DNA of 64,000 bases from Candidatus Cloacimonadales bacterium. GTDB taxonomy: Bacteria > Cloacimonadota > Cloacimonadia > Cloacimonadales > JAIOQZ01. Position numbers and translations under genes: made by a program. The notes under the pieces are model-generated. The model searched no databases. It was not told the origin of the DNA and saw only the letters and a program-made list of their open reading frames with translations. The stretch's first letter is position 1. Each line of letters opens with the position of its first letter. Positions 7,201 through 24,154 of this stretch are shown here, piece after piece. The stretch spans positions 3,330,864-3,394,863 of the forward strand of contig OY771587.1 of assembly GCA_963674825.1 (NCBI GenBank). The letters run 5' to 3'.

Positions 7201-10200
7201 TCGGACGCGGTCATATTCCACGGCGTCATCATTCCCTGGTATTCGTATGCTCCTATATCGATGCGGTTCGATACGCTCTGGGCGTGTTCGTAGATGCGCG
7301 GATTACCAATATAGTCGATATCGGGAAGATCGAGAAATCCGCCGTCGATGAATCCTGCGTTGAGACAAGGTGATGTACTGGTAAGCTGGTATGGATTGAC
7401 TCCGCTACCCACGAATTGCGGATCGTCGCTGATATTGCCGCTTCCTTCAGCGCCGCCCTCGACGCAGCAATAGCGAATGTCCATGTTGCCGGAGAGCGGT
7501 GAATCGCCGTTGTCCCAGATGATACAGCTTGCGATGTCCGGCTCGGCAGTACCCGATGTGCGAATCGCGTTTCCCACGGGCGCATCGCTGAATAAGATAT
7601 CGAGATTGTACAGCCCCGGGTTGCCATCAATAATGTAGAATGCGCCGCCAGAAACGGTTGCTTTGCTGGAAAGAACAAGCCCGTTGAGGATGTTGGCATA
7701 GCTGTCGTGGATATATGCTGCACCTCCGATATCGGCGTTGCCGTTGAGCAGCATGCAATTCTTGATCGTAAGATTGTCGTAACCGTCGATGCAGAGGTTT
7801 CCGCCATGCGGCTTGAATGGGTTAACGTCGTTACCGTTCCAGATGTTGATGAATTCAGCGTAGCTGCTGTCTGCGGAATTGCCGAAGTAGATACCGCCCC
7901 AGCCAGCACCTTCAGTTGATTCGTTGAACGTGATTTTTTGATAAAGGGTTCCGTTTGCCTGCAATGCGCCATAGATTCCCAAGAGTGAATCAGAGGTGAA
8001 TCGCAGTGTCGAATAAGGATTGACGGTCAGCGTGTATCCCTCTGCAATTGCGATGGGGACGTTGATTGTAACCTGTCCGCTAAGCGTAATATCCTGCGGG
8101 ATGAGTCCACGTCCAGTCTGCTCTTCGTAAGCGCCGACATCGGTGGTGTTCAAGATGGTGTCGATGGTGGAATTGATGCTGGATGGGCTTGAAAGCACAC
8201 GCGAATTCCCCAGGAAATCGGTGTCCAGAATACCGTCATACATCTCGCCGCGGTTGATACAGGGCGATGTATCGGAGATTTGATAGGGCGTGCTTCCTGA
8301 GATGAAGTCGGGGTCGAGATCGAAGCAGTCGGTATAGGATCCATTGAAATCAGCAACCCCGTCGCCTTCGAATCCTTCGAATCCGCCTTCGATATCGCAG
8401 TGCCGGAAATCGGGATGCCAGGAGGATGCATCGAGATAGACCTGATCGCCGCTGGGAGCTTCGTTGCCACGGATGATCGTGTTGACGATACTGCAATCGC
8501 AGACAATGTTGACATGCAGTCCACCGCCGCTGACAGTCGCTTCGTTATCGACGATGGTATTGTTCCAGAGGTGCTCAGACCGCTGATAGCACATGTACAT
8601 TCCACCACCGTATTCCGCTTCGTTCTCGTAGATGATATTATCCTGTACAATCGGAAAGAACCACGTGTCGCCCATGTTTTGGAAGCCAATGCCGCCACCA
8701 TACTGCGCTTCATTGTGGCAGATTTCATTTCCGTGGATGACGATATCCTGATAATCGACGCCATGCAGACCTATTCCACCGCCGCTCTCGGTCGCGAAGT
8801 TGTGCGCGATGTAATTGCTGCGGATCACGGGCATAAACTGAGGATTGTGTTGTTCGCTGTTGTAGGTGAAGCTGGCGATACCACCGCCGAGTCCGTTGGA
8901 GAAATTGTTAACGATACGGCAGTTTTCGACATGGCAGTACGATTCCCCGAAACAGATCGCGCCGCCCTGGGTGATGACTTGGTTGAAGTCTTGGTCGTAA
9001 AGAGCTTTATTGTAACTGAAGACACTGCCGGTGACCATGCATTCAGAGAGATCGTTGATCCACAGAGCGCCACCTTTTTTGTAGGCGTAGTTATAGCTGA
9101 ATCGCGAGTTGGAAATCCGCCAGCCGCCGTTGCTGTTGATGAACATCGCGCCACCGCAGAATCGTTCATTGTCGTCGTCGCCGAGTTGTGCCACCGCTTT
9201 GCCGTGATCCAGGATGCAGTGATCGAAGATAGTCGAATCCTGACTGGAAGCGATATTGAGCGTGATACCCGCCCAGCTTCCGTCCGGCGCAATCGGGTAG
9301 GTACCTGATATGTTGTGGAATCCTGTCGTATCCGCAATTGTGAAGCGGATGGAGTCTGCTTCGGTTCCGAGCGCCTGCAGCGCGCCTTGAACCAGAATAC
9401 CATAATGATCCTGGAAGATTACCGTGGTTCCCGGTAGCAGGGACATCGTCTCGCCGGCGGGAATAGTGAGATCGTCCCAAACGGTTACATTAGTCGAGGT
9501 AATCTCCTGTTCTTCATCGTATATTCCCCCGAGGTAGAATCCTCCGATGGGGCAGGTCGATTCCAGGTCGGGTGTTTCGCTGGAAACCTGTATGCAGACA
9601 GCGTTGAAGGGTCCCGCCAAATTATAGACAGGACGATGGATAACTTCGTTAAAGGTGTAGTTCGCTACCAGGTCTGTTTCCGGGTCGGTCAGCGAGATGT
9701 GTCGGTTGTTCCAGATTTCGGATGCCGATCGGGCTGTTTTCCATATCCGTACTTCGTCGATATAGCCTTCGAAAATCTGTGAGGATCCGGCTTTGGAACC
9801 AATTGAGCCAAGCGGACTGCCATCAGGATCTTTGATCGTAGTGCCCTGAGCCTGGGTGCTGTTGCTCATGTTGACGCCATTGATATAAAGGGAACTGGTT
9901 CCGCCGGTATCCACGACCAGCGCCACGTGGTACCACCGCCCGGGATTGAGCCCGTCCCAGGATAACGACATCGTTTCGGCAGATCCGCTGCGATCCAGTG
10001 TCGCTTGCCCATACACGGTTGTATTGTTGGTATAAATCTCGAATTCCCCATGATCGCCGTGATAAAGAATCGTGCGGTTGGATGAGTCTAACTCGGAGAG
10101 ATTAAACCAAGCCTCAGCAGTGATTGCATTGGGTGGGGTTGTCCATAGTGGATTGAATATCACGCGCTGACAATCGTCTCCGTATTGCAGCATTCTGTCG

Positions 10201-10931
10201 TTCAATGTCCAAACATAGGAAACATTTGAGTCGTCCCACCAGCCGCCTTCATGTAGCGTTCCGTTATTGTTGCCCGTCTCGTCATGGATTGTCGTGGATT
10301 CGTCGTCCATCTTGTAGTAAGCGACGAGGCCAGGTTCGCTACCCGCAAGGTGGTTGTATTTATTCGCGGTCAATTGCTCCGGGGTTCGGGCTATATTCCA
10401 CAGTCGTATCTCATCGAGATATCCGTTGAAGAATCTTCCCGGCATCTGGTAGTTATTGCCGATATACACAGGATAGTTATTCGTAGCAGTACCCGAAACC
10501 GTCGTTGTGCTGTGAAGAACACCATCGATATACATACTGAGCAGGATTCCGTTTTTAACAATTTCGATGTGATGCCAGAAACCACCGAAATAACCGGCAT
10601 TGGTGAAATCGCATTTCGATGGGTCAGAGGTTACGCTGGCGCTTCCGTACGTGAAGCGAATTTGATCCGTTTCGTCATAGCGATGCAGTCTCCAGCTATT
10701 GTCTCCCTTGGCGATGATCGTCTGCCACGGCATATCGAATCCGCTGATAATCACCCATAATTCCAGTGTCATGTTAGTGGTGAAATCGAAATTGGATTCA
10801 TTGGGCAATACGATGTAACCACCGGAATTATTGAAATGATAGCACTTATCAAAATAGGACTCCATCTGTCCATGAAGTGATAAGGATAAACTCATCAATA
10901 CCAGGACGAAAAGAAATGTAGTTTTGCGCAT
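1215..10931 (-). CDS. Giant (3238 aa) secreted surface protein with multiple LamG/ConA-like lectin modules, parallel beta-helix repeats and an FN3-like module
   Basis: Uninterrupted 9.7-kb ORF with an AAGGAGAGG RBS and signal peptide MRKTTFLFVLVLMSLSLSLHG. The LamG signature recurs (LDEIRLWNIART, IDEVRIWKTARS, IDELRFFNIARTQ). Long series of GGA/GGG-turn repeats (GGALWIN, GGAICF, GGGIASF, GGGIGLH, GGGIGFQ, GGGMYM, GGGLHV) are typical of a right-handed beta-helix. The C-terminal region has an FN3-like stretch, PPQNVRLQRSGDDVVIMWDAVDGAISYHVF. I could not recognise a T9SS CTD. Confidence 0.9.
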   Translation of the reverse strand: MRKTTFLFVLVLMSLSLSLHGQMESYFDKCYHFNNSGGYIVLPNESNFDFTTNMTLELWVIISGFDMPWQTIIAKGDNSWRLHRYDETDQIRFTYGSASVTSDPSKCDFTNAGYFGGFWHHIEIVKNGILLSMYIDGVLHSTTTVSGTATNNYPVYIGNNYQMPGRFFNGYLDEIRLWNIARTPEQLTANKYNHLAGSEPGLVAYYKMDDESTTIHDETGNNNGTLHEGGWWDDSNVSYVWTLNDRMLQYGDDCQRVIFNPLWTTPPNAITAEAWFNLSELDSSNRTILYHGDHGEFEIYTNNTTVYGQATLDRSGSAETMSLSWDGLNPGRWYHVALVVDTGGTSSLYINGVNMSNSTQAQGTTIKDPDGSPLGSIGSKAGSSQIFEGYIDEVRIWKTARSASEIWNNRHISLTDPETDLVANYTFNEVIHRPVYNLAGPFNAVCIQVSSETPDLESTCPIGGFYLGGIYDEEQEITSTNVTVWDDLTIPAGETMSLLPGTTVIFQDHYGILVQGALQALGTEADSIRFTIADTTGFHNISGTYPIAPDGSWAGITLNIASSQDSTIFDHCILDHGKAVAQLGDDDNERFCGGAMFINSNGGWRISNSRFSYNYAYKKGGALWINDLSECMVTGSVFSYNKALYDQDFNQVITQGGAICFGESYCHVENCRIVNNFSNGLGGGIASFTYNSEQHNPQFMPVIRSNYIAHNFATESGGGIGLHGVDYQDIVIHGNEICHNEAQYGGGIGFQNMGDTWFFPIVQDNIIYENEAEYGGGMYMCYQRSEHLWNNTIVDNEATVSGGGLHVNIVCDCSIVNTIIRGNEAPSGDQVYLDASSWHPDFRHCDIEGGFEGFEGDGVADFNGSYTDCFDLDPDFISGSTPYQISDTSPCINRGEMYDGILDTDFLGNSRVLSSPSSINSTIDTILNTTDVGAYEEQTGRGLIPQDITLSGQVTINVPIAIAEGYTLTVNPYSTLRFTSDSLLGIYGALQANGTLYQKITFNESTEGAGWGGIYFGNSADSSYAEFINIWNGNDVNPFKPHGGNLCIDGYDNLTIKNCMLLNGNADIGGAAYIHDSYANILNGLVLSSKATVSGGAFYIIDGNPGLYNLDILFSDAPVGNAIRTSGTAEPDIASCIIWDNGDSPLSGNMDIRYCCVEGGAEGSGNISDDPQFVGSGVNPYQLTSTSPCLNAGFIDGGFLDLPDIDYIGNPRIYEHAQSVSNRIDIGAYEYQGMMTPWNMTASDGNNNYNGYVYLEWEFNSDYQPLTGFRVYRNNVQLQSITSDARSYADYTANPGTFYEYSIVAYAGTESSSSDSDYGYMKPNGIITGNICTPNDNPVSEVIVSVSPAQGKCLEMNGELSIDDPELDTSQDFTWEIWVKLSTANFSIMYQDIGLVVTAEISDYLRFVQVDSTMNVTTLLEQPDTTSSIVDDQWHHLAVVYDASQPLLTLYIDAEEIVSETVTITPFLENDLYVGADGSIDELRFFNIARTQTKIDLQRNLILPWSETGLIGYWPMNEGAGNHVFDGTNYSHVGTFTTGTWSDDEPGIVPGAVTDVWGDYAISQLSYGSATTFTVTPSKAGHNFQPEQRLVTLSNSNISQNGVDFTDNSMISVSGIVRYIDTQVPVEGASILLNGSATIPPTLVDEDGEFTMDLEHGTEAILSVSFEEHEFDRVWDLGAVTYPRTGINFWDTEKVSFALRIVGGNDGYPIGSFDVLLREMGDRYTQVEDNLPWGGGIVAITNVPPLNYNLTATADPEDDPFGLGVLPSFQDISTVNVDLRYTETAPDTVSIVWHNDLTVEAVWPTSLDIKYMDDDQYQEFGFYVLPQNEWCSVNVRAFEDYRAAGSPAFVTYITDCDIQITDEVGTQGETEDNFDGNNYYTYTFAPYLPNIITNGDRKHQNMLEFTVHDTNLDRYATQTDWVLTEGTRPMESTFSTTSPELPFLVLHDPPGDCSYSSFSQTSSTSVSMSVSAEMTIANNQHQTMHMGPDFSFDTGLFYSIETEIDATIDIGQSVTAELGMGCDTETQYTFSTTEEYNTSPDNQLIGLESDLFVGGAVNLVWGITKEVAWIDSTNSVNLTQGVMVSPNGFDTIYMYTESQIRLSVIPNLIAIGDTTSAALWQSYLDMNEDNIENAVANPNHPANVSFNAGAGYTYEETCASTEANTFYFTTTVSEEFGMDFGLTVNGMGETGGWSFETGVTIGHSTATENEMSTTSTFVLADDDETSSLNYLSDYFTVDIKTDPVYGTPVFETIAGASSNRWEPNTLPRDGVNLTANTYAQSGLEDGDQAVFLLSLQNTSQSEEYRRYYLTMHHDSNPGGATVKINGVPLEEQMAFDIPPSSAVQAVMTVERGPYEFDYEDLALEFYAPGDRGNDGPDGHYFYVYKYFDVHWEPPYSRVEIQFPNDDWIINQANNDTLNVILTGYDIEKPYLESLLLQYKKTCNRDWITAAVIPDSVLAEYPFYIQIPWDVSLLSDGAYEIRAGATDYVQTENYYCPPVQGFIDRISPTSFTAPEPSDGILSLGDQILLSLTEAIDPVGIDPDDISLTILDNYMPLNCDFSVFNNEIVLTPASDMLWWMENHLVQASVEGITDLYGNPLEEALTWEFFVNANPVGWSQTKVEAIKPLGEEMEIDMMLINSGGQTSSFVIEDLPEWLTVDVENGQLYPLDSQSLTFTVNEQLGYGTFCDTLYADIPGLGREPLVFDISVLANPPSWVATPLSNFEYSMTITGQLNIDDTISTDTNDIVGAFVLDQDGSYQCRGFASIHHVPFVDDEYQFFLTVHSDEEYGDTLYFRTWDSSENKEHFGINQTYVFLSGAVYGTSLSPVVLDVCPELFTTIECHGGWTWFSINLVNQGSMLLDNILSSLGPVQNDLIKSQTEYAQYVEGTGWVGSLSSIETTQMFKIKLAEQSDLQCNGLLDDPQTTAITYGSGWNWIGYLPHLSISVNEALADMPSLVSGDLIKNQTGYSQYIEGYGWYGSLLFMNPGEGYMLKTAGSGSFFYPDYTIPREQPALEQHDQNLVKSPRDLPGWDFDPLDYEYSSNITAVVQIDDELQNSENFILGAFCGDECRGVASLVQVMDQWTFFLTQYANTIGETIQYRIYDPDLDVVYTADESIVFISNQVLGNPIEPYMFHVESIGLLPPQNVRLQRSGDDVVIMWDAVDGAISYHVFQAESPDGPWIDVSANGVFTPIRTGGVCWTIELPEVGLGFFHVTSDTEPYTRTRTIRPTADNTSVRKE

Positions 10932-10970: not shown

Positions 10971-10986
10971 TGCAGGGGTTGTGCCA
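10971..10986 (-). promoter_or_regulatory. Sigma-54 (-24/-12) promoter of the giant surface-protein gene
   Basis: The minus strand reads TGGCAC-aaccc-CTGCA. The GG and GC dinucleotides are at the canonical 12-nt offset, about 40 nt upstream of the ATG at 10931. Confidence 0.7.
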
Positions 10987-11050: not shown

Positions 11051-11064
11051 GAACGTTTTCGTTC
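11051..11064. promoter_or_regulatory. 14-bp palindrome GAACGTTTTCGTTC, candidate enhancer (UAS) for the adjacent sigma-54 activator
   Basis: 5+4+5 inverted repeat centred 72.5 bp upstream of the -24 GG of the promoter at 10971..10986. A near-identical copy sits at 14368..14381. Confidence 0.5.
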
Positions 11065-11141
11065 GAATTGGGCGATATCGTTCAGCGCTATATTGAAAAA
11101 TATTGACGCATTCGTTCGCTGTATGTTCTCATGGAATCAAT

Positions 11142-12989
11142 ATGAATCAGTCACCAGATGAAGCACAAACACATGCACGCGATTTAATCGCACAGGCTTA
11201 TCGGCTTATGAACAGCGATCCGCCAGGGTGCATCCGCCTTTCGGAAGAAGCGCTGAATGTGTCCCATGAAATCGGTTTCGCGGTTGGCGAGGGCATGGCA
11301 CTGATGCACATCGGGTTGGGGTATTTCCATCAGAGTAATTTTCAGGAAGCGCAGAAGTACTACCTTGAGGCGGAGCCTATATTGCGGCGCGAAGAATACT
11401 GGTATGGTCTGCGGTGTGTCTACAATAATTTGGGTGTTACCTATCGACAATGGGGCGATCATCAGAGAGCGCTTGAGTATTATAAGCAAAATCTTGATCT
11501 CGAAGACCGTTTTCCAATTCCCAAACTGCAATGCACAATTTTGTATAATCTCAGCACAATCTATCTTGATCTGGAAGATGAGGAAATCGCCAGAGAATAT
11601 CTGATGGAAGCCCTGAAGCTTGCTGAAGAACATGGGATTGTCTCATCATTGGCGCTGGGATATAAAAGTTTGGGACAATACTACCGACGAATTGGTGATT
11701 TTCATGGTGCTCACGAGTGTTTCGAGAAATCCAGAGCAGCTTACGAACAGACTGGGGACAAATCCGGTCTGTCTCATCTCTGTCAGGCGATCGCCTATCT
11801 CTATTATGACGAGGATCGTCTGGATGATTCACTCGAAGTCCTGGAGGAGGGCATGCGCCTGGCTCTTGAGATAGGTGAAAAACAGCAACAGGCCTCGCAT
11901 CATTTCACGTTTGCCCGTACCTATTACGTTACCAGAGATCTAAAGAAGCTGATAGAGCATCTCGATGAGTGTATCCGAATCTCGGAGGAGGGTATTTACC
12001 GGACATACCTTATCAATGCGCTGGAATTGAAAATCAAGGTATGCGAAGACGAGAATGACTATAAAGCGGCTCTCGAATTGACCCGCAAGCGCCAAGCTCA
12101 TCTGGATTACCTGAATGAAGAGAAACGAAACCGTGCGATCGAGGAAATCAAGACCCGGCTACAGGTTCAGAGACGGGAGCACGAAGCCGAAGTTCTTCGA
12201 TTAAAGACCATCGACCTGACGCAGCGTGTGGAAGAAGAGGTGAAAAAACGTGAGATCCAGCAGCATCTGCTCATCCAGAAATCGAAAATGGAATCGCTGG
12301 GGCGTCTGGCAGCCGGTATCGCCCATGAAATTAATCAACCGCTTGGAATGCTGAATATCGGACTTCAGAACCTGTACAACAAACTGAATAACGAAAAAGT
12401 GACCCCCGACTATCTGGATAAAAAGCAAAACCTGATGAACGAACACATCGAGCGGATCAAGAAGATTATCGAGCATATCAGGTTATTCTCGCGCGAGCAA
12501 CAGTCCAGCGCAATCCGGTTGCTGGATGTACGGGAAGTGCTCAACAACACCCTCTCGATGATGCTGGTTCAATGCGGCGAGCACAATATCCGGCTGAACG
12601 TAAAGACCGGAGATGAGCCGGCGTTGGTTCTGGGCAATCCATACCGGCTGGAGCAGGTGCTCCTGAATCTGATTGCGAACGCCAAGGACGCGCTGGATGA
12701 GAAATTCGACCGGTTTGACGACGCGAAGCTCATCACGATAACATGCCGGAAAGATGGAACTCGAATCCGGTTGAAAGTGACGGATAACGGACCCGGTATC
12801 GAAGAAGAGTATCTTCAGTCCGTTTTCGAGCCGTTCTTTACTACGAAAGACGAAATGAAGGGCACTGGACTGGGTCTTTCGATCTGTTACGGCATCATAC
12901 AGGAAATGGGCGGGACGATAACCTGCGAAAGTACTCAGGGTGAATCCACCACTTTCGATATCGAGCTTCCGGCATTGGAGAATTCATGA
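11142..12989 (+). CDS. Cytoplasmic TPR-repeat sensor histidine kinase
   Basis: The ORF track gives 11103 (TTG) as start; the first in-frame ATG is 11142. The N-terminal ~330 aa are TPR-like (YNNLGVTYRQWGDHQRALEYYKQNL etc). They are followed by a coiled coil, an H-box AAGIAHEINQPL, and HATPase motifs (NLIANAKDA, DNGPGI, GTGLGLSICYGIIQEMGG). No hydrophobic TM segment is evident. Confidence 0.85.
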   Translation: MNQSPDEAQTHARDLIAQAYRLMNSDPPGCIRLSEEALNVSHEIGFAVGEGMALMHIGLGYFHQSNFQEAQKYYLEAEPILRREEYWYGLRCVYNNLGVTYRQWGDHQRALEYYKQNLDLEDRFPIPKLQCTILYNLSTIYLDLEDEEIAREYLMEALKLAEEHGIVSSLALGYKSLGQYYRRIGDFHGAHECFEKSRAAYEQTGDKSGLSHLCQAIAYLYYDEDRLDDSLEVLEEGMRLALEIGEKQQQASHHFTFARTYYVTRDLKKLIEHLDECIRISEEGIYRTYLINALELKIKVCEDENDYKAALELTRKRQAHLDYLNEEKRNRAIEEIKTRLQVQRREHEAEVLRLKTIDLTQRVEEEVKKREIQQHLLIQKSKMESLGRLAAGIAHEINQPLGMLNIGLQNLYNKLNNEKVTPDYLDKKQNLMNEHIERIKKIIEHIRLFSREQQSSAIRLLDVREVLNNTLSMMLVQCGEHNIRLNVKTGDEPALVLGNPYRLEQVLLNLIANAKDALDEKFDRFDDAKLITITCRKDGTRIRLKVTDNGPGIEEEYLQSVFEPFFTTKDEMKGTGLGLSICYGIIQEMGGTITCESTQGESTTFDIELPALENS

Positions 12990-14365
12990 AACAACTCAAT
13001 ATTCTCATCGTCGATGACGAACAGGGTTATCTGGATGAGATCAGTGAATATCTAACCGATTGCGACTTCAGTACATTCACGGCCGGAACACCAAAGGAAG
13101 CTCTCGCGATCGTCAAACAACAGCAGGTCGATATTGCAATCGTCGATTTGAAGCTGCCGCAGATGAATGGGATCGAATTAATGCGGCAAATACTTGGCAT
13201 CGATGACTCGATCGCGATCATCATGATAAGCGGTCACGGCGATATCGACAGTGTCATCGAAGCGATGCGCGCCGGAGCTACAGATTTCTTCCCGAAACCT
13301 TTCAACCTGACAGATATCAGGATTTCCATCGAGCGCACCCGCAAATATGTGGATTTATCGCATAAACTCAATACTGCTCAAAACACGGTGGATGTTCTCA
13401 AATGTACACTGGAGAAGGAGGGACGGCATCCTATCGTAGCACAAAGCGATGCGATGAAGACCATCGTGCAGCAGATGCGACAGGTAGCGAACCAGCCTTA
13501 CTTCGACGTGCTGATCACCGGTGAGAGTGGTACTGGAAAAGAACTCGTCGCAAGAGGAATCCATCATTTGGACGAGACGACGAACGGAGTGTTTTACGAT
13601 ATCAATTGCACCGCGATCCCTGAAACGCTGTTCGAAAGCGAATTCTTCGGCCATGAAAAGAACGCGTTCACGGGTGCGCAAACCACGAGAAAGGGTTGCT
13701 TCGAACTTGCCAACGGTGGTACGCTCTTTCTGGATGAAATCGGAGATATGCCGTTGTCCATGCAGGTCAAGCTACTCAGAGCATTGGAAGAACGACGTAT
13801 TCGTAGGATCGGCGCACCGCGGGACATCCAATTGAACCTGCGGGTAATCGCATCGACGAATCGAGACCTTCGCAGCCTTATACAGCAGGGGATATTCCGG
13901 CAGGACCTGTACTTCAGATTGAATCGCTTTGGTTTGCATATTCCACCGTTGCGTCACAGAACGGATGATATACCGCCTCTTATGGATTTCTTCGGCATGA
14001 ACACCGCCAGGGATATGAAACGCGATGCCTTGCCCATTGCGAAATCGGTACGGAACCGACTCGTTAAATATCCCTTCCCGGGCAATATTCGCGAACTGAG
14101 AAACATGATCGAAAAGGCAAATATTCTTGCGGGAGCGGATGCCGCAGAACTGGATGAAAAATGCTTCCCCGATCTGTTTCAATTCGACCCTCTGTATAGC
14201 CCGGTATACGACGGCTTGAACCTCCAACGACTGGAGGAGATTGAAGCACAGATGATCCGGAAAGCCCTCGAGCAAGCTGTGGGAAACAAGACTCGGGCTG
14301 CGGAACTGCTCGGAATCACCCGAACCAGTCTCAACCGACGAATCGCGAAATACACCTTAGAATAA
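12986..14365 (+). CDS. Sigma-54-dependent response regulator (REC + AAA+ + Fis-type HTH; NtrC family)
   Basis: ATGA start/stop overlap with the kinase gene. REC domain (ILIVDDE..., DIAIVDLKLPQMNG). AAA+ motifs are GESGTGKE, the GAFTGA loop (NAFTGAQ), ESEFFGH and the arginine-finger region. The C-terminal HTH is GNKTRAAELLGITRTSLNRRI. Confidence 0.93.
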   Translation: MKQLNILIVDDEQGYLDEISEYLTDCDFSTFTAGTPKEALAIVKQQQVDIAIVDLKLPQMNGIELMRQILGIDDSIAIIMISGHGDIDSVIEAMRAGATDFFPKPFNLTDIRISIERTRKYVDLSHKLNTAQNTVDVLKCTLEKEGRHPIVAQSDAMKTIVQQMRQVANQPYFDVLITGESGTGKELVARGIHHLDETTNGVFYDINCTAIPETLFESEFFGHEKNAFTGAQTTRKGCFELANGGTLFLDEIGDMPLSMQVKLLRALEERRIRRIGAPRDIQLNLRVIASTNRDLRSLIQQGIFRQDLYFRLNRFGLHIPPLRHRTDDIPPLMDFFGMNTARDMKRDALPIAKSVRNRLVKYPFPGNIRELRNMIEKANILAGADAAELDEKCFPDLFQFDPLYSPVYDGLNLQRLEEIEAQMIRKALEQAVGNKTRAAELLGITRTSLNRRIAKYTLE

Positions 14366-14367
14366 AC

Positions 14368-14381
14368 GAACGCTTTCGTTC
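14368..14381. promoter_or_regulatory. Second copy of the palindrome (GAACGCTTTCGTTC), candidate UAS; may double as a weak terminator hairpin
   Basis: Same 5+4+5 inverted repeat as at 11051..11064. It lies 3 nt after the regulator stop codon. After subtracting the IS (1035 bp) and its 8-bp duplication, its centre is 71.5 bp from the -24 GG of the promoter at 15488. Confidence 0.5.
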
Positions 14382-14414
14382 ACTTTCTGTCTCGATCATA
14401 CCACGGGCATCCTT

Positions 14415-14422
14415 TCTAATCT
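14415..14422. repeat. Target-site duplication, left copy (TCTAATCT)
   Basis: Identical 8-mer directly abuts both IS ends (14415..14422 and 15458..15465). Confidence 0.85.
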
Positions 14423-15457
14423 GGCTTAATGGACAAAATGGTTGCTATTTCGCCAGAATTTCATCGATCATTTTACGTTTTCTCCATGGTTTAATGCCCG
14501 GATGATTTCTCAGCTTTCTTTTCAGCATTGAGAATGTCCCTTCCAGAGAATTCGTGGTGTTAGGGATGCCTCGATCTGGGTAATCCTGATAAATGAATAG
14601 GAAAGGGAGATTCGTTTTTAAGCTTCTGATTGCGCTACGTAATCTCCGATGAGTATAGTGCCATTTTCCAGTTTCCAGATTGAAGGTTTTCTCTCGTAGG
14701 AAAGATTTCCATTGCTGTTCCCACATCGAAAGCATAGCTTCAAATTCATGACGAGTAGAATGAGATAAATGCCCTACAATTTCCTTCAATTCTTTACCTG
14801 CTTCAAGCTTTGGATTGCGAGTTAGATATCGAGTAATGATCTGTACCTGATGGAATTGACACATTTGTACAGGGATATCGCTAAAGGCATGAAAAAGCCC
14901 TCGTTTCCCATCACAAGCGATTCCCAGGATTTCCCATGATCTACTCTGCAACCACCGAATGCCTTCAATATAGTCCTTCAATGACTCATGTTTCACATAA
15001 ACCCAGAGCAGATTTTTCCGACTCAGCTCATCGCGAAAAACCATGACACCAAAGCCGCGTCCAAAATAACTGGTGTCCATAACGATCACGCATTTACCTT
15101 TCTCATGTAGTTGGATATCGACGGTGACTTTATCGAGTTTGCGTCGAATAGTTCGAGTTGATATCCCATATCGATCACCGAGGTTTTCGAGTGTCTGATT
15201 GCCATGAACATGATCATTCCACAAGTGGATAATCAGATCATTCTCAGAACGCTTGGTATTCGCAAATACACTGTGACAATCATGGCAAAGGTATCGCTGA
15301 GCTCGACATCTTTTACCGTTTTTTTCGTCCTATACGAGCCACATTTGGGGCAGCGTTTTCGAGTCATTTCTGTGCTCCTACATAAAAACTTGGATTTAAA
15401 TGACTCGATATAAATGAGATAGATATGATTTCAGCAACCTTTTTTGTCTATTAGACC
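14423..15457 (-). mobile_element. Complete insertion sequence (1035 bp), IS1-family-like
   Basis: Imperfect terminal inverted repeats GGCTTAATGGACAAAATGGTTGC (14423..14445) and rc GGTCTAATAGACAAAAAAGGTTGC (15457..15434), about 19/24 identical. Flanked by an 8-bp direct repeat. Encodes a Zn-ribbon + DDE transposase split at an A7 run. The size, GG ends, 8-bp TSD and A-run frameshift all fit IS1-type elements. The family call is by analogy, not by search. Confidence 0.8.
14445..15367 (-). CDS. Transposase in two frames: orfA 15367..15233 (44 aa, Zn-ribbon start) and orfB to 14445, joined by a -1 shift at A7 (15325..15319)
   Basis: orfA starts with AGGAG-N6-ATG and reads MTRKRCPKCGSYRTKK. A -1 slip on AAAAAAAC gives ...KKNGKRCRAQRYLCHDCHSVFANTKRSENDLIIHLWNDHV..., which completes a CxxC...CxxC ribbon and runs into the 259-aa track ORF. 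Candidate DDE residues are DTSYF, CDGKRG and NSLEG. It is either programmed frameshifting as in IS1 InsAB', or a homopolymer frameshift mutation or sequencing error. Confidence 0.75.
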
Positions 15458-15465
15458 TCTAATCT
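15458..15465. repeat. Target-site duplication, right copy (TCTAATCT)
   Basis: See 14415..14422. The native sequence also carries TCTAATCTCA twice, 20 bp apart (15458..15467 and 15478..15487), directly upstream of the -24 element. Confidence 0.85.
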
Positions 15466-15487
15466 CAATTTTTCGATCTAATCTCAC

Positions 15488-15503
15488 TGGCACTTGGTTT
15501 GCA
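15488..15503 (+). promoter_or_regulatory. Sigma-54 promoter (perfect consensus TGGCAC-ttggt-TTGCA)
   Basis: Exact match to TGGCAC-N5-TTGCA. It lies 23 nt upstream of the ATG at 15526, with GAGG at 15517..15520, and 31 bp to the right of the IS end. Confidence 0.75.
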
Positions 15504-15525: not shown

Positions 15526-15837
15526 ATGATCTTGATGTATCATACACATACAGAAAATGCGCAGGAGATCGCCGAATTGATTCAAGACAGCGATCAGGAG
15601 ATCCAAATTGTGAATGACATCTGTACGTTGGTTTCAAGGCTTAAAACAAGCTCGGTCAGCAAACTGTACTTTCAGGTAAGAGGTCTTTCGGATTTCCGTA
15701 CGCTGGATATGCTGCTGTCCATTTCACCTGATCTTGATATTTCGCTTCTGGTTAAACCAGAAATGGAGAAGCTGCTGACACTTATGCAAACAATTTCGTT
15801 TGAAATTCTTCCAACCGAAGATGTTCTGGTGAAATAG
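15526..15837 (+). CDS. Small hypothetical protein (103 aa), possibly a degenerate receiver-like (flavodoxin-fold) protein
   Basis: The track ORF starts at 15499 (TTG) inside the promoter, so I re-called the start to ATG 15526 behind GAGG. The alternating beta/alpha pattern resembles REC, but the acidic pocket is absent (MILMYHTH instead of xxDD; KLYFQVRG instead of DxxxxD). Confidence 0.4.
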   Translation: MILMYHTHTENAQEIAELIQDSDQEIQIVNDICTLVSRLKTSSVSKLYFQVRGLSDFRTLDMLLSISPDLDISLLVKPEMEKLLTLMQTISFEILPTEDVLVK

Positions 15838-15840
15838 AAA

Positions 15841-16373
15841 CTATTTTATAATGTCGCTCAATTTGTCTACAATCTTGATAAATGCAATATCGGTCATGTA
15901 TGCCTTAAGCCGATAAGACCAGATGAAATAAACGCATGGCTTGGGAAGTAATGTGAGCCTACAGGGCTCTGTATAAGGAAAAAGGTGTGGAAGCTGATAC
16001 CGCTCCTTTGTTGATAAGCGAGGGGTGTCATTTATCAGACGCGAAAAGAGCGAAGAATCCAATGAAATATTGATGAACGTCCTTTGCCAGTCTGCAAAGC
16101 ATCTCTTACTCTGAACAATTTTCGAAAAAGGCCCTGGCAGAAAACGTGGTTGTTCTTTTTCAAAATGTCATACGTCATGACAATTGCATGATTCGAATTG
16201 CAATATTGCAAGAATCCCAATCTCGCATTCAAAAATTGAAACAGGTCTCGAATTCCATCTTTGATTAACTCTTTGCAAATGAATATATTGGAAATCCAGA
16301 TCGTCTCCCGGTATTCGAATGGCACAAATCTTACAAGTATGAATGTTCGAAAAGAAAAAAGGTGGTGTAACAA
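15841..16373 (-). pseudogene. Probable decayed 3' fragment of an IS4/IS5-type (DDE_Tnp_1-like) transposase, split over two frames
   Basis: Two overlapping minus-strand ORFs in different frames (16373..16035 and 16062..15841), with no plausible N-terminus. FEYRETIWISNIFICKELIK resembles the Y-x2-R-x3-E-x6-K / YRxRWxIExFFKxLK C-terminal signature, but with substitutions and an indel. The segment is AT-rich. Confidence 0.3.
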
Positions 16374-17533
16374 TGATTCAAAAGATAGTGTTTGCTTTTC
16401 TGATCATGGCTTTGTCAATTGCAGGATTGTCAGGAAATAAATGCCTGCAATTCGACGGCACAAACGATTTTATAATAATCGATGATCAAATTTCATTCAG
16501 TGGAGCTTACACCATCGAAGCGTGGTTCTACTCACAAACTTCGGGTGAGCAAAATATCTTATCAGCAACGAATAGTGACAACCAGCATGGTATCATTATC
16601 GCAATTGATAGTGGTAACAGATATCGCTTTCTCCATCGCGATCCTTCTGGCTCGAGTGGCGAACGCAATATCAGGGTAGGTGCGAGTAACTTCGTAAATA
16701 ACTGGCATCATATTGCTGCTGTATTTGATGGCAGCAGCACGTTCTTATATCTTGATGGTGCTGTCATCGGCAGTATGACAGGTGCAAGCGCTTTTTCTTC
16801 CTCCATGAACATCACCATGGGGAGATTAACCCCCATTAATTCTGCGCGTTATTTCAACGGTATGCTCGATGAAGTCCGCATCTGGAACATAGCTCGCACG
16901 CAGACAGAAATCCAGGAGTTGATGAACACAGAGCTTACGGGAGATGAAACGGGACTGGTCGCATATTATTCGTACAACCAGGAAAGCGGAGATGTTCTTG
17001 AAGACGCCACAGCGAACGTTAACGACGGTACACTGTATAATTTCACGCTGCCAGAGGCATGGGTGACATCCACTGCGCCAAACCATTTTCCACCGGGCAA
17101 CTACCTCGGTTTTGACGGCATTGATGATTATGTGGAAATACCATATACCGATTCGCTGGACTTGACTGGTGATATGACCATCGAGCTTTGGGTACGGTTC
17201 GATTCGCTTGCTTATGATCCGCAGTGTCTCTTTGCGAAAGGTGATTACGATTCCGAAGCATATTCGATGATGCTGAGTTCGGATAGTCTATTGAAGTTTC
17301 ATACTGGCAGCATGACACTGGAATATCATTGGGCTGATCTTGTAGCCCATGATTGGAATCATATTGCTGTTGCTTGCAACGGTGACAGCACGAAAATCTA
17401 TATCAACGGTCATCTGAAAGTTGCTTACCTGGAAGGGACTATTTCCACCAATAATGAAATGCTTCGATTGGGCGGAAGTTCCGGGGCAGATACTTATCCG
17501 CTAAATGGTGGAATCGACGAATTTCGCGTCTGA
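16373..17533 (+). CDS. LamG-domain secreted protein: upstream part of a longer frame that ends at an in-frame TGA
   Basis: Start re-called to ATG 16373 (GGTGGTG RBS). Signal peptide MIQKIVFAFLIMALSIAGLSG. LamG signature LDEVRIWNIARTQTEIQEL. It ends ...GGIDEFRV-TGA, exactly where the motif requires Trp. Confidence 0.8.
   Translation: MIQKIVFAFLIMALSIAGLSGNKCLQFDGTNDFIIIDDQISFSGAYTIEAWFYSQTSGEQNILSATNSDNQHGIIIAIDSGNRYRFLHRDPSGSSGERNIRVGASNFVNNWHHIAAVFDGSSTFLYLDGAVIGSMTGASAFSSSMNITMGRLTPINSARYFNGMLDEVRIWNIARTQTEIQELMNTELTGDETGLVAYYSYNQESGDVLEDATANVNDGTLYNFTLPEAWVTSTAPNHFPPGNYLGFDGIDDYVEIPYTDSLDLTGDMTIELWVRFDSLAYDPQCLFAKGDYDSEAYSMMLSSDSLLKFHTGSMTLEYHWADLVAHDWNHIAVACNGDSTKIYINGHLKVAYLEGTISTNNEMLRLGGSSGADTYPLNGGIDEFRV
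17531..17533 (+). other. In-frame TGA at a conserved Trp position, joining ORF 16373..17533 and ORF 17609..20875 (same frame)
   Basis: 17609-16343 = 1266 = 3 x 422, so both track ORFs are in one frame with a single stop between them. Read through, the sequence gives IDEFRV[*]NVVRTQEQIYDNRYNQLPVDEPGLVMYYRFDQG. This parallels LDEVRIWNIARTQTEIQELMNTELTGDETGLVAYYSYNQ in the same protein. Confidence 0.9.
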
Positions 17534-17608
17534 AATGTAGTCCGAACGCAAGAGCAGATATATGATAACCGATACAATCAACTGCCGGTAGACGAGCCCG
17601 GCCTGGTT

Positions 17609-20600
17609 ATGTACTACCGTTTCGATCAGGGTGATGCGGGAGAGAATAACACGTCGTTACCCAATGAGGTTGTCGATCATACGAATACCCACCATGGCGT
17701 TCTCAATAATTTCGCGATGGCAGGAGATAGCTCAAACTGGCTCGCTACCGGTTATGATGCAGCCTTGGTACTAAGCACGATCAGAGCGCACAACGTTACC
17801 GGAGAAACAGCCAATGTGAGTGCTGAGATACACAGAACCGGTTCAGCACTCGTATCGGTTCGAGGAGTATGCTATAGCAGTGCCAATAACAGCCCAACCG
17901 CTGATGACAGCACGGTAGAAGAAGTTAACCCCGGTGGCATTTCTGCCGGGGAGTATACTACATCGCTTTCTGGCTTGGATGGCAATACGCAATATTATAC
18001 ACGAGCCTTTGCCAGCAATGAAGTAGAGACGATTTATGGTGAGACGTGTCAGTTTACAACCCGCACATCGCCCAATGCACCGGACAGTCAGGCTTGTGAT
18101 ATTGTGTTCTCTCATATAACCCAGACGCAAGCGACGATCGCCTGGACGAATGGCAATGGAGATAACCGCGCAGTGTTCTTGCTTCAGGGTGACAGCGGCG
18201 TTGCTCCGCTCAATGACAACACGTCTTACTCAGCGAGTAGTATCTTCGGACAGGGAGACCAAATTGGCGATACTGGCTGGTATTGCGTCTATAATGGCGC
18301 AGATTCGAGTGTTAACGTGACGGGTCTGGTCACGAACACAACCTACAGGGCGATGGTGTGCGAGTATTACAATTCTTCTGGTTCTGAGATATACAACGCC
18401 GGTACGGCTAGCCATAATCCAGAAAACACGCCTATGTCACAATTTTATATCAGTATGGGCTTATATAATTATGGCATTTCGGGTGATACGGATTGGGGTG
18501 ATTACGACAATGATGGTGATCTGGATCTCTTGGCTGTTGGTGGAGGTATAATCGTTAGTGGAGTCTTCCGAAACAATAACGGTAATTTTTCGGATATAAA
18601 TGCCGGATTAATACAAGTAGCTAATGGCAGCGTTGCATGGGGCGACTATGACAATGATGGAGACCTGGATATTCTTTTAACGGGCATTGATTACGACCAA
18701 GTTGAGGTCTGCAATATTTATCAAAACAATGATGGCCTCTTCCACGATATTAACGCTGGATTACTCGGCGTTAATTACGGTAGCTCAGCTTGGGGTGACT
18801 ACGACAACGATGGAGATTTGGACATTGTCATCACTGGAAAAAACTTCTCGATTGGCTCCGTCAGCCGAATCTATCGTAATGATGACGGTGTTTTTACCGA
18901 CATTGATGCGGGACTGATAGATGTTGAGGAGTGTTGCGTGGAATGGGGTGATTACGACAACGATGGTGATCTGGATATCCTCTTTACAGGAAGTTCCTCA
19001 GAGGGCGGAGAAGCCATAATCTATCGTAATGACGGTGGTATTTTCACCGATATCCATGCTGGCTTGCTTGGGGTAACCAAGAGCGGCGCCGCCTGGGGTG
19101 ATTATGATAACGATGGTGATCTGGATATTTTTATCCTCGGGTACAATGAACTAAACATCGCAATGAGTAAAATCTATCGCAATGACGGCGGTATTTTCAC
19201 CGATATTCATGCTAATTTAGTTGATCTTGCTTATGGTGATGCTGCTTGGGGCGATTACGACAATGATGGCGATCTGGATCTTCTGCTGTCGGGAGAACAT
19301 GCGAACAACAATTATCACAGTTTCGTTTATCGCAATGATGATGGCGTATTTACCGATATTGAAGCTGGCCTTCCAGGATTGACAGTCAGTAAGGTGGACT
19401 GGGGTGACTACGACAACGACGGTGATCTGGATTTTATGCTTTGTGGGACTTTGGCACCCGGTTCTTTTTACTCCTATAGATGTCGCAATAATATGGGAAC
19501 GAATACCTTTACAACCAATACTGCGCCTGATGCTCCAACGAATTTCGAGATATCTTTTTCCGATGACGAATATGTGTGTAGCTGGGATGCTTCGGCAGAT
19601 GATATAACGCCGGTGGAATGCCTGACATACAATCTACAGATGGGATATGGCAACCAAGGCACGGACATTGTTTCACCCATGGCACAATTGAGCGACGGAT
19701 GGCGCATGATAACCGCGATGGGAAGTCAGAACCACAATACGCAATGGGCGCTTTCGTCTCTTCCGTTGAGATATCAAGTCGAATGTGTCGGTAGGGTTCA
19801 GGCTATTGACGGCGCTTACATGGGCTCAAGCTTCTCCGCAGAAGATACCTTTTGCTTGTATCCTGAGCTAGTAAACGAAGATGAGCTCGCGCCCGAAGGC
19901 GTTCTTTCCTGGGAGACCCAGTCTCAATTCCTGGAAATCATTGAGGGTTACCAGGTGCAGATCGATGTTACTACAGCGTTCACAAACCCGATCATTGATC
20001 AGGTTGTGTATCCCGAGGACGACACTCGTTCGGCAGCTCAAGCCTCGAGAATTGGTGCCTCATCCAAAGAAACAGCGCTTGTCACCCTCTCAGCCTCAAA
20101 CCCTGAGACAGTTCAGCGCACAGATTATCACAGTGTGCAACTCAATGAACTGACAAATTACGGTGACCTTGTGGGAGGGACGGTTTATTACTGGCGCACA
20201 AGGCCCATCTACAGCGACAGTATTGCATCCGTATTCACCGTGGAGGAAAAATCGTTCACCTATGTTGCTGGAAATAGTGCACCGAACCCACCTACTGATG
20301 GCTTCAGTCCTGCGAATGACGATCCGGTCTCCAGCCTCACACCCATGATATCCTGGAACGCTGCAACGGATCCCGATTCGAGCGATACACCTGATCTGCT
20401 GCGCTATTTCGTCGAGCTCGATACGCTCGATGTGTTCTCAGCGCCGGTCGTTACAGACTCTACGACGGTTGGGAATCCTCACATACAGCTTGAGGATCCG
20501 CTTATTTCGGGATATCGCTACTACTATCGTGTCAAAACGATTGATGACGAGGACGCGGAATCCGAGTGGTCGGTAACGCAGCAGTTCGTAACACTCTTGC

Positions 20601-20875
20601 CACCGCAGAATGTCATCATCGCGTGTGGGGAAGAAGGAGTAACGCTTTCTTGGGAAGCTATGGCCACGAATCTGGGAAACATGGTCTATACGGTGTATAG
20701 TTCGAGCGATCCAGAAGCTATATTCCCCGATGAATGGGCTGTGGAAGCGGTGAATCTTGGCACGACATCATGGCAGGATTCAGACGCTACAGCCCCGATG
20801 AAGTTCTACATTGTCACAGTGGGAAGTGCATCGCGCGAAGCAACATCCAGCTTGAACACGAAAAATACGAGATAG
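17609..20875 (+). CDS. FG-GAP/VCBS seven-blade beta-propeller + FN3-like surface protein (downstream part of the interrupted frame)
   Basis: Seven WGDYDNDGDLD(I/L) calcium-binding-type FG-GAP repeats. FN3-like segments are also present (APDAPTNFEISF..., LPPQNVIIACGEEGVTLSWEA...). The coding frame is actually open from 17534. No independent RBS is evident at 17609. Confidence 0.8.
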   Translation: MYYRFDQGDAGENNTSLPNEVVDHTNTHHGVLNNFAMAGDSSNWLATGYDAALVLSTIRAHNVTGETANVSAEIHRTGSALVSVRGVCYSSANNSPTADDSTVEEVNPGGISAGEYTTSLSGLDGNTQYYTRAFASNEVETIYGETCQFTTRTSPNAPDSQACDIVFSHITQTQATIAWTNGNGDNRAVFLLQGDSGVAPLNDNTSYSASSIFGQGDQIGDTGWYCVYNGADSSVNVTGLVTNTTYRAMVCEYYNSSGSEIYNAGTASHNPENTPMSQFYISMGLYNYGISGDTDWGDYDNDGDLDLLAVGGGIIVSGVFRNNNGNFSDINAGLIQVANGSVAWGDYDNDGDLDILLTGIDYDQVEVCNIYQNNDGLFHDINAGLLGVNYGSSAWGDYDNDGDLDIVITGKNFSIGSVSRIYRNDDGVFTDIDAGLIDVEECCVEWGDYDNDGDLDILFTGSSSEGGEAIIYRNDGGIFTDIHAGLLGVTKSGAAWGDYDNDGDLDIFILGYNELNIAMSKIYRNDGGIFTDIHANLVDLAYGDAAWGDYDNDGDLDLLLSGEHANNNYHSFVYRNDDGVFTDIEAGLPGLTVSKVDWGDYDNDGDLDFMLCGTLAPGSFYSYRCRNNMGTNTFTTNTAPDAPTNFEISFSDDEYVCSWDASADDITPVECLTYNLQMGYGNQGTDIVSPMAQLSDGWRMITAMGSQNHNTQWALSSLPLRYQVECVGRVQAIDGAYMGSSFSAEDTFCLYPELVNEDELAPEGVLSWETQSQFLEIIEGYQVQIDVTTAFTNPIIDQVVYPEDDTRSAAQASRIGASSKETALVTLSASNPETVQRTDYHSVQLNELTNYGDLVGGTVYYWRTRPIYSDSIASVFTVEEKSFTYVAGNSAPNPPTDGFSPANDDPVSSLTPMISWNAATDPDSSDTPDLLRYFVELDTLDVFSAPVVTDSTTVGNPHIQLEDPLISGYRYYYRVKTIDDEDAESEWSVTQQFVTLLPPQNVIIACGEEGVTLSWEAMATNLGNMVYTVYSSSDPEAIFPDEWAVEAVNLGTTSWQDSDATAPMKFYIVTVGSASREATSSLNTKNTR
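18494..19436 (+). repeat. Seven tandem ~150-bp coding repeats (FG-GAP blades)
   Basis: The core TGGGG(T/C)GA(T/C)TA(C/T)GA(C/T)AA(C/T)GA(T/C)GG(T/A/C)GA(T/C)(C/T)TGGA recurs at about 18494, 18638, 18791, 18944, 19094, 19247 and 19398. Confidence 0.9.
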
Positions 20876-20929: not shown

Positions 20930-21045
20930 CAAAATAAAGCCTTGCTGTCATCATCAAGGTGTGATCGTACAGGTTATCCTCAGATATTGCTTTACAACTC
21001 GATATAATGCGCCAGAATATTGCGATTAACGATAAGTGGGGAACA

Positions 21046-23990: not shown

Positions 23991-24029
23991 TCTGCCACTT
24001 TCACAACACCCTTTTCGCTGGGTAATGAA

Positions 24030-24054: not shown

Positions 24055-24154
24055 ATTTTGTAATACTCTATTGAGACAGCATAACTGCGTATAGTGCTCA
24101 TAAGATATTATATGGCAACTTGTTATAGTATGGGAAATACTGATTCCCTTCCAC

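Follow-up and report, generated by a model that had tools for sequence, protein, structure and literature searches.

The 64-kb window (the whole stretch of DNA analyzed here) carries one short palindrome at either end of an operon for a sensor histidine kinase and an NtrC-type activator; one copy lies close to a sigma-54-like promoter, and the other is parted from a second such promoter by an insertion sequence (IS). This arrangement poses two questions: whether the palindrome is the enhancer through which the neighboring activator acts on both promoters, and what the insertion has done to the promoter from which its palindrome was moved away. On comparative grounds, we consider it very probable that GAACG-N4-CGTTC is the enhancer (UAS) of the adjacent NtrC-type regulator at two sigma-54 promoters; one copy has been displaced by the IS. 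The features on which the argument draws are as follows, in window coordinates:

1215–10931, minus strand: giant LamG-domain protein gene, 3238 aa, target 1 (ORF; Pfam Laminin_G_3, 7.9e-64)
10972–10986, minus strand: predicted sigma-54 (−24/−12) promoter of the giant gene, TGGCACAACCCCTGC, 1 mismatch to TGGCAC-N5-TTGC
11051–11064: palindrome copy 1, GAACGTTTTCGTTC, predicted UAS of the giant LamG gene promoter
11070–11083: half-degenerate site, GGGCGATATCGTTC, second predicted site at the giant-gene promoter
11142–12989, plus strand: sensor histidine kinase with N-terminal TPR repeats (Pfam TPR_12, TPR_MalT, HisKA, HATPase_c)
12986–14365, plus strand: NtrC-type response regulator and sigma-54 activator (REC, AAA+, Fis-type HTH; Pfam)
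14368–14381: palindrome copy 2, GAACGCTTTCGTTC, predicted UAS of the small-gene promoter
14415–14422: target-site duplication TCTAATCT, left copy, 8 bp
14423–15457, minus strand: IS of the IS256 family (zinc-binding variant), 1035 bp (inverted repeats and transposase match)
~15367 to 14445, minus strand: transposase, with a frame break near 15325, at an A7 run
15458–15465: target-site duplication TCTAATCT, right copy, 8 bp
15488–15503, plus strand: predicted consensus sigma-54 promoter of the small gene, TGGCACTTGGTTTGCA, 0 mismatches
15526–15837, plus strand: small gene, 103 aa, target 2, predicted CheY-like pseudo-receiver
22674–23990: second activator, recognition helix IDRKTLRLKL

Two Predicted Promoters Share a Palindrome, Originally at Nearly One Distance

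The preliminary description of this locus had reported both palindromes (11051–11064 and 14368–14381), their position on either side of the operon of the TPR kinase and sigma-54 activator, and a perfect TGGCAC-N5-TTGCA promoter at 15488, all of which our coordinates reproduce. The center of GAACGTTTTCGTTC lies 73 bp from the center of the −24 GG of the minus-strand giant-gene promoter, and that of GAACGCTTTCGTTC lies at present 1115 bp from the −24 GG center of the promoter at 15488; subtracting 1043 bp (the 1035-bp IS plus its 8-bp duplication) gives 72 bp before insertion. The distances given earlier (72.5, 1114.5, and 71.5 bp) hold, ours being counted from a slightly different reference point. 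Within the 64-kb window, GAACGNTTTCGTTC has three exact matches against 0.01 expected, a count reached in 0/100 shuffles, and no rpoN gene was found. The third exact match (29510–29523) falls within a coding region, and a sigma-54 promoter for it was rejected, the only boxes being antisense-strand ones with two mismatches at distances that do not match. A half-site-like sequence 19–22 bp downstream of the 14368 palindrome (CTCGATCA) was likewise dropped, being conserved in neither L001 nor L003 of the comparison set described below.

Spacing and Motif Are Conserved across Related Loci

Nine IS-free related loci, three of them close (L001–L003) and six more distant (L086, L088, L181–L184), served as the comparison set, and regulator identity across them ranges from 86% down to 53%. 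The four genes of the module (those for the TPR kinase and the sigma-54 response regulator, the small gene, and the giant LamG gene) remain neighbors as the genes around them change: the kinase is syntenic with the regulator and a small-gene homolog (101–114 aa) follows the regulator in all related loci, and orthologous giant LamG genes lie beside the kinase/regulator pair in L001–L003, L088, L181, and L182 (LamG genes also occur at L086 and L183), divergently oriented in the window clade and downstream in L088 and L181–L183. A word-indexed search with the small protein matched only the four close genomes, and its distant homologs were located via synteny.

Comparison with uninterrupted alleles had been proposed as a check on the original spacing, and all nine related loci bear that spacing out. 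A proximal site of the GAACG-N4-CGTTC type is centered 72–74 bp from the −24 GG in 10/10 small-gene promoters, and at giant-gene promoters the palindrome center lies exactly 73 bp from the −24 GG in 4/4 close genomes. Palindrome arms and −24/−12 elements are 100% pairwise identical among the four genomes, with intervening spacers at 44–47%. The giant-gene promoter is kept as TGGCACAACC(C/T)CTGCATAT in L001–L003 with a diverging flanking spacer, and the −24 and −12 elements of the small-gene promoter are conserved in the same three loci and recognizable in L086, L088, and L181–L184. Judging from these sequences, we infer that both promoters are sigma-54-dependent in vivo.

Further sites accompany the proximal one. 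The half-degenerate site at the giant-gene promoter has its center 19 bp beyond that of the 11051–11064 palindrome, which puts it at 92 bp from the −24 GG; in L001–L003 it is kept as GGGCGA-NN-TCG(T/A)TC (arm identity 0.95), and in L088 a perfect palindrome is accompanied, 22 bp away, by a similar site of the GGGCG-N4-CGTTC type. The distant loci carry additional sites at 156–157 and 177–180 bp, offset from the proximal one by near-integral numbers of helical turns, and the small-gene enhancer of the window lineage has one recognizable site only.

The motif is also essentially confined to this clade and to these positions. In 188 kb of clade DNA, 18 exact copies of GAACG-N4-CGTTC were counted against 0.18 expected (~100-fold), 17 of them at predicted enhancers. 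None was found in the 762 kb surrounding 80 unrelated loci for sigma-54 activators, a negative-control set with 34–45% paralogs from other phyla that was recovered via generic AAA+ motifs. L084, which has a 57%-identical regulator with the helix TRVSLNRRL, has no such motif. A metagenome-wide scan for GAACG-N4-CGTTC-N{50,80}-TGGCAC-N5-TTGC returned 92 matches at about three per gap length (8 at gap 65, including duplicate contigs, and 10 at gap 80), only one of which lies near any GAFTGA protein; these pairs are background, and the clade promoters were missed by the scan because they mostly deviate from the strict consensus. That such pairs arise at background frequency is all that would favor coincidence as the source of the shared palindrome and spacing, a reading that is hardly credible given the near-flat distribution of gaps in the scan, the lack of a protein with the orthologous helix near any of its matches, the excess over expectation within the clade, and the site within 72–74 bp at 14/14 clade promoters.

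The Adjacent Regulator Is the Probable Binding Protein

The regulator has the composition expected of an NtrC-type protein (Response_reg, 5.6e-27; Sigma54_activat, 1.2e-65; HTH_8, 1.2e-14), and the recognition helix ITRTSLNRRI is common to the six motif-bearing regulators that were aligned (one reads TRTGLNRRI). Its L1 loop reads NAFTGA, and HAFTGA or NAFTGA was found in 20/20 relatives read, down to 51% identity; the F-T-G-A core is retained and the first Gly of GAFTGA is replaced. No mention of these loop variants was found in the literature searched. Because the loop is noncanonical, sigma-54 coupling is assumed from the conserved promoters and not from the loop.

Given the conserved spacing, the confinement of the motif, and the conserved helix, we infer that the palindrome is bound by this regulator rather than by another protein, which supports the earlier proposal that the palindrome is the activator's UAS, with both promoters as its local regulon. 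What ties the palindrome to this regulator is synteny and helix conservation, and it could in principle be the operator of some other transcription factor encoded elsewhere, such as a global regulator, with the adjacent activator binding at another place. We regard this as improbable: the palindrome keeps a fixed 72–74 bp phase with sigma-54 promoters, which need an enhancer-binding protein, it stays with the kinase and regulator genes where the locus is rearranged, and it is absent from the 762 kb around other activators. Moreover, the spacers of the aligned close genomes contain no other conserved inverted repeat.

The second activator in the window (22674–23990) was considered as the binder and rejected. 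Its helix differs, it adjoins other palindromes and a glutamate dehydrogenase gene (gdh), and no second activator gene was called in L001–L003, all of which count against such a role.

The position of copy 2 suggests a different role, in which it would act mainly as an RNA hairpin, the intrinsic terminator of the kinase–regulator operon. It starts 3 nt past the activator stop codon (TAA, 14363–14365), as does the orthologous site in L001–L003, and a consensus scan lists a terminator-like element there, with a 5-bp stem and a loop of 4. The hairpin is weak (−4.3 kcal/mol), has no Rfam match, and lacks the stable GC-rich stem with U-run that marks a rho-independent terminator, and the T-run is not conserved in orthologs (L003 reads ...CGTTCAACCCCTTCGCC). 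The palindrome also occurs in the region of the divergent promoters, in which no transcription unit ends, and the distant loci place the site anywhere from 40 to ~1000 bp from the stop codon yet always 72–74 bp from the promoter. Finally, the arms are invariant at the level of DNA sequence, without compensatory changes, and the N4 loop is free to vary, a pattern that suggests recognition by a protein. A terminator as the main function is therefore very improbable.

We hypothesize that the palindrome serves as the regulator's enhancer in the following way. The TPR histidine kinase (11142–12989) would phosphorylate the regulator, a dimer of which would bind GAACG-N4-CGTTC and oligomerize on the palindrome, using in addition the weaker neighboring site at the giant gene. 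Looping over about seven helical turns (72–74 bp), the regulator would contact sigma-54 RNA polymerase at the two −24/−12 promoters, with two outputs, the minus-strand gene for the giant LamG surface protein and the small pseudo-receiver gene (15526–15837). An IS256-family element has landed precisely in the spacer of the second promoter and moved its predicted enhancer from ~72 to 1115 bp upstream.

The product of the small gene has no match in Pfam or NCBIfam. Its AlphaFold2 model (pLDDT 81) gives receiver-domain matches at TM ~0.7 with weak E-values, and a CheY-like fold without the phospho-acceptor aspartate, that is, a pseudo-receiver, is predicted.

An IS256-Family Insertion in the Second Promoter Region

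A 1035-bp IS with an 8-bp duplication had been described in the spacer, and both are confirmed: the element spans 14423–15457, and its TCTAATCT direct repeats are identical at 8/8 positions and spaced exactly 1043 bp. After removal of the IS, the window sequence is colinear with the empty orthologous sites in L001–L003, and the element is absent from every related locus. The statement that its inverted repeats and duplication are intact stands for the duplication, which is perfect; the inverted repeats (GGCTTAATGGACAAAA-TGGTTGCT and GGTCTAATAGACAAAAAAGGTTGCT) are imperfect, with ~20/25 positions matching, and the transposase frame is broken at the A7 run. The raw frame meets a stop 44 codons in, and past the A7 run, which lies in the zinc-finger codons, the DDE part is found in the −1 frame, so that this copy does not have the uninterrupted reading frame of an active element. 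The break could stem from a homopolymer sequencing error, slippage, or mutation. The frame-restored transposase (307 aa) matches NCBIfam NF048019 over residues 8–306 (4.6e-115; 384 bits, where the cut-off is 150), a match that requires the −1 frame correction. The insertion had also been called recent, which holds relative to other species only, the related loci being free of the IS.

The element resembles other members of the IS256 family in its full-length transposase match, imperfect terminal inverted repeats, 8-bp duplication, and insertion into a promoter region. It differs in that the window copy needs a −1 shift at the A7 run, and in that the insertion parts an enhancer from its promoter with no gene disruption or obvious hybrid promoter.

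Displacement Most Likely Reduces Activation

According to a review (PMC7408454), activation by NtrC is not appreciably lower when its sites are placed 1000 bp or more away, and at 6 kb the sites work less efficiently. Since enhancers of the NtrC type act by tethering and tolerate kilobase distances, the most likely effect of the insertion, by analogy with these systems, is that activation of the small gene is reduced and not abolished. The preliminary description had suggested instead that the IS silences this gene by separating enhancer from promoter, which we regard as possible but doubtful. In the window lineage, the small-gene promoter has a single recognizable site at which oligomer assembly may be marginal, the strict 72–74 bp spacing suggests that phase matters, and an actively transcribed IS now lies within the loop; for the first of these reasons, displacement may affect this enhancer more than it does the multi-site enhancers of the NtrC paradigm. 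Against silencing stand the reported function of NtrC sites at 1000 bp or more (PMC7408454), the intact small ORF, Shine–Dalgarno sequence, and consensus promoter, and a weak outward sigma-70-like hexamer pair in the IS end (15400–15429) that could supply read-through.

An effect of the displaced enhancer on the LamG/FG-GAP genes farther downstream (16374–20875) had also been raised as a possibility. In L001–L003, the three closest relatives, the small gene is not followed by such genes, and those of the window have a sigma-54-like box of their own at 16320, in palindrome-free surroundings; for these two reasons, they are probably not under the control of the 14368 enhancer.

Relation to Known Sigma-54 Systems

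Taken at its broadest, the four-gene module may be a previously undescribed, clade-wide sigma-54 circuit controlling cell-surface display in Cloacimonadota-like bacteria, with enhancers rigidly phased at ~73, 156, and 178 bp from the −24 GG and with the window as a natural 1-kb enhancer-displacement mutant; we put this forward tentatively, as a proposition that is rather less likely to be right than wrong. If it were true, the window genome would have lost the coupling of the pseudo-receiver to the giant protein; the pseudo-receiver may be a partner of the kinase or the regulator in feedback. The proposed enhancer supplies a testable motif and a two-promoter regulon for an uncharacterized sigma-54 two-component system of uncultured Cloacimonadota-like bacteria, and the IS allele would be a natural experiment on the movable range of a single-site bacterial enhancer. 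Sigma-54 is reportedly concerned mainly with control of the bacterial exterior, a view that a sigma-54 two-component system linked to a giant LamG surface protein fits. The general understanding of sigma-54 regulation is unchanged by these results, which are ordinary regulatory genomics.

The closest paradigm is NtrC (NRI) at glnAp2, together with other pairs of a sigma-54 promoter and a UAS for a bacterial enhancer-binding protein. The window system shares with it a two-component response regulator built of REC, AAA+, and Fis-type HTH domains. Shared, too, are sites of dyad symmetry ahead of a −24/−12 promoter, the tandem ones separated by about two turns of the helix, and the location of the sites in the divergent region adjoining the regulator's own operon. 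The NtrC half-site pattern is TGCACC-N5-GGTGCA. The window system differs in its GAACG-N4-CGTTC site, its TPR kinase sensor, and its N/H-AFTGA L1 loop, in its predicted targets (instead of nitrogen genes, those for a pseudo-receiver and a giant LamG surface protein), and in its rigid spacing, with sites at 73, ~156, and ~178 bp in Cloacimonetes-like loci. The site center lies ~97 bp upstream of the inferred start, close to the range of 100–150 bp quoted for enhancer sites (PMC7057263).

In its site, the window system is reminiscent of GcsR, a TyrR-like enhancer-binding protein of Pseudomonas aeruginosa that controls glycine cleavage from three tandem sites upstream of a sigma-54 promoter and binds TGTAACG-N4-CGTTCCG in EMSA, one natural site being GGAACGAATTCGTTCC (PMC4894688). 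The two share the AACG-N4-CGTT core with its 4-nt spacer, a likeness of site sequence and geometry that implies no orthology; GcsR, by contrast, is TyrR-like, has no receiver domain, belongs to another phylum, and recognizes arms that extend to 7 bp (TGTAACG).

Palindromes, Candidate Promoters and an Insertion at the Regulator Locus

Two copies of a 14-bp GAACG-N4-CGTTC-type palindrome, whose sequences and coordinates in the preliminary description proved exact when re-checked, flank a kinase–regulator operon in the window.

Features of the locus (window coordinates; domains from Pfam)
1215-10931, minus strand: giant gene, 3238 aa, Laminin_G_3 / fn3 protein
10972-10986, minus strand: giant-gene -24/-12 box TGGCACAACCCCTGC
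11051-11064: palindrome GAACGTTTTCGTTC, within the 210-bp divergent region between the giant gene (minus) and the plus-strand operon
11142-12989, plus strand: kinase gene, TPR-HisKA-HATPase_c
12986-14365, plus strand: regulator gene, Response_reg / Sigma54_activat / HTH_8 activator
14368-14381: palindrome GAACGCTTTCGTTC, 3 bases past the regulator stop codon
14423-15457: insertion sequence (IS), 1035 bp, imperfect terminal inverted repeats
about 15311-15367: transposase frame break, A7 run within zinc-finger codons
at 15488: small-gene -24/-12 box TGGCACTTGGTTTGCA, consensus
16320-16376: region with near-consensus sigma-54 box TGGCACAAATCTTAC (-12 GC to AC), ahead of a 386-aa LamG gene

The palindrome centre lies 73 bp from the centre of the -24 GG at the giant gene and 1115 bp from it at the small gene, where the IS is present. 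The IS is bracketed by the direct repeat TCTAATCT at 14415-14422 and 15458-15465 (spaced exactly 1043 bp), and deleting it together with one copy of the repeat brings the palindrome to 72 bp from the -24 GG, in agreement with the previously claimed pre-insertion spacing of ~71.5 bp. It occurs once in the window and no copy was found in any of the related loci. With a -1 shift at the A7 run, its minus strand encodes a 307-aa protein; the NCBIfam model NF048019 ("IS256 family transposase, variant Zn-binding type") gives this protein a full-length match at 384 bits, above the cut-off of 150. Left unshifted, the frame meets a stop after 44 codons, partway through a CxxC...CxxC zinc finger; this copy therefore either contains a sequencing error in the homopolymer, relies on slippage or has lost activity. 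At its right end (15400-15429) the IS also carries a sigma-70-like hexamer pair, ATGACT-18-TATGAT, facing outward toward the small gene and matching the consensus only weakly (9/12).

Uninterrupted Alleles in Close Relatives

A protein search with the regulator recovered three close orthologs (86, 84 and 77% identity), whose loci (L001-L003) share the order giant LamG gene (minus strand), TPR kinase, regulator and ~100-aa small gene, lack the IS and differ from one another in the genes past the small gene. In all three, the palindrome starts 3 nt past the regulator stop codon and is centred 74, 72 and 74 bp, respectively, from the small-gene -24 GG, so that the comparison with IS-lacking alleles, which the preliminary description had proposed, returned the undisplaced spacing. 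The IS-removed window sequence aligns to these loci with single-base gaps only, and the giant-gene spacing is 73 bp in 4/4 genomes. Across the four, palindrome arms and -24/-12 bases share 100% pairwise identity and the 64-66-bp spacers only 44-47%. A second divergent-region site, GGGCGA-NN-TCG(T/A)TC, follows 19 bp past the palindrome in each.

Past this second site and ahead of the kinase start codon lies a TGAAA-N4-ATTGACGCA box (11088-11110), conserved at the aligned positions of L001-L003, which may be the operon's own promoter or another operator. The L002 small gene (11497-11809) is frameshifted, with its N-terminal 27 codons in one frame and the remainder in another; either the gene is a pseudogene or the assembly has an indel there.

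Motif Frequency and Distant Relatives

The palindrome pattern as written has 3 exact matches in the window against 0.01 expected. Clade DNA totalling 188 kb holds 18 exact matches to GAACG-N4-CGTTC against 0.18 expected, 17 of them in predicted enhancer regions, and none is present in the 762 kb that surround 80 unrelated sigma-54 activators. The exception, GAACGGTTTCGTTC at 29510-29523, falls within a 1053-aa PPDK_N / nucleotidyltransferase ORF (27309-30470). The flanks at 70-180 bp on both sides hold no convincing sigma-54 box, and this copy may be an intragenic site or a chance match; with 10 fixed bases, about 0.06 such matches are expected per window.

More distant regulators (53-58% identity, on Cloacimonetes-type contigs) are preceded by a TPR kinase in L086/L087, L088, L181, L182, L183 and L184. 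In each distant locus a 104-114-aa small gene, homologous to that of the window (23% identity, pairwise E 5e-10), comes after the regulator, and in most a giant or large LamG protein is next. At every locus, a proximal site of the GAACG-N4-CGTTC type (at most 1 mismatch) has its centre 72-74 bp upstream of a -24/-12 box. Most loci add two tandem sites, 156-157 and 177-180 bp away from the -24 GG; with the proximal site and this tandem pair, L086, L088, L181, L182 and L184 share a near-invariant architecture. The small-gene enhancer in the window's clade is cut down to the proximal site alone.

Two distant loci carry other DNA between regulator and enhancer. In L184, an IS200/IS605-type Y1 transposase element (5396-6150), which has a hairpin-containing direct duplication of approximately 80 bp on its flanks, separates the regulator stop codon from the three-site enhancer and leaves the enhancer–promoter spacing at 74 bp. 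In L088, ~1 kb of non-coding, repeat-rich, CT-rich DNA (6384-7360, with long direct repeats around 6900-7300) intervenes, and the enhancer retains its 72 / 156 / 178 bp architecture.

Proposed Mechanism and Consequence of the Insertion

The palindrome–promoter arrangement is best read, on sequence grounds, as a standard bacterial enhancer, functionally equivalent to an NtrC-type UAS/sigma-54 pair. From the observed sites, spacing and synteny we infer that the regulator binds the palindrome and that the promoters depend on sigma-54. The phosphorylated regulator would bind the dyad as a dimer and then oligomerise, and a DNA loop of ~73 bp, or nearly seven helical turns, would bring it to sigma-54 RNA polymerase. 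Because the 72-74 bp distance is invariant and the extra sites are offset by roughly whole turns, the architecture argues for face-of-helix-dependent action. Among experimentally bound motifs, the closest that we found, TGTAACG-N4-CGTTCCG, belongs to GcsR of Pseudomonas aeruginosa, one of whose natural sites is GGAACGAATTCGTTCC (PMC4894688); the literature searched made no mention of the GAACG-N4-CGTTC motif for any Cloacimonadota regulator. The earlier reading of the palindrome as the activator's enhancer, displaced by the IS, is supported with caveats, IS-free alleles having kept the spacing. The system belongs to a well-known kind, to which it adds a natural enhancer displacement.

With the enhancer now 1.1 kb from the promoter, silencing of the small gene, which had also been suggested, would not be the default expectation, since NtrC sites are reported in a review to tolerate moves of at least 1000 bp without appreciable loss and to retain some function, at lower efficiency, even at 6 kb (PMC7408454). 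The usual UAS position is about 100-150 bp upstream (PMC7057263). Possession of a single recognisable site could make the small-gene promoter more fragile to displacement; promoter, Shine-Dalgarno sequence and ORF are all intact. The small protein has a predicted CheY-like fold (pLDDT 81; TM about 0.7 to receiver domains) and, read against the receiver-domain pattern, no acidic pocket and no phospho-acceptor Asp.

An effect on the LamG (ATG 16374) and FG-GAP (17609-20875) genes, raised as a further possibility, is unlikely, because L001-L003 lack these genes, 536 bp separate them from the small gene and they possess a TGGCAC-N5-TTAC box of their own. That box, TGGCACAAATCTTAC, lies some 40 nt ahead of the probable true LamG-gene start, and the 500 bp upstream contain no GAACG palindrome.

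Regulator Sequence Features and a Second Two-Component Pair

The motif-bearing regulators aligned (n=6) share the Fis-type recognition helix ITRTSLNRRI, with the variant TRTGLNRRI in L088; at L084, where the helix is TRVSLNRRL, the GAACG-N4-CGTTC motif is absent. The sigma-54 contact loop of the regulator is, unusually, NAFTGA in place of GAFTGA (13650-13670, residues about 222-227). All 20 relatives read (P0002-P0048), down to 51% identity, have HAFTGA or NAFTGA, and in homologs more distant still the loop reads GAFTGA or GSYTGA; the literature searched made no mention of N/H-AFTGA variants.

The window holds a second two-component pair (region 21007-25495), composed of a histidine kinase with a GAF domain (21007-22677) and, at 22674-23990, a sigma-54 activator whose helix is IDRKTLRLKL. 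Different palindromes, TCCCCA-C-TGGGGA-GAATA-TCCCCA (about 24030-24055), follow this activator, and a sigma-54-like box, TGGCACAACAAATGC at 24155, precedes a glutamate dehydrogenase gene (24209-25495), with which the pair probably forms an NtrC-like nitrogen circuit.
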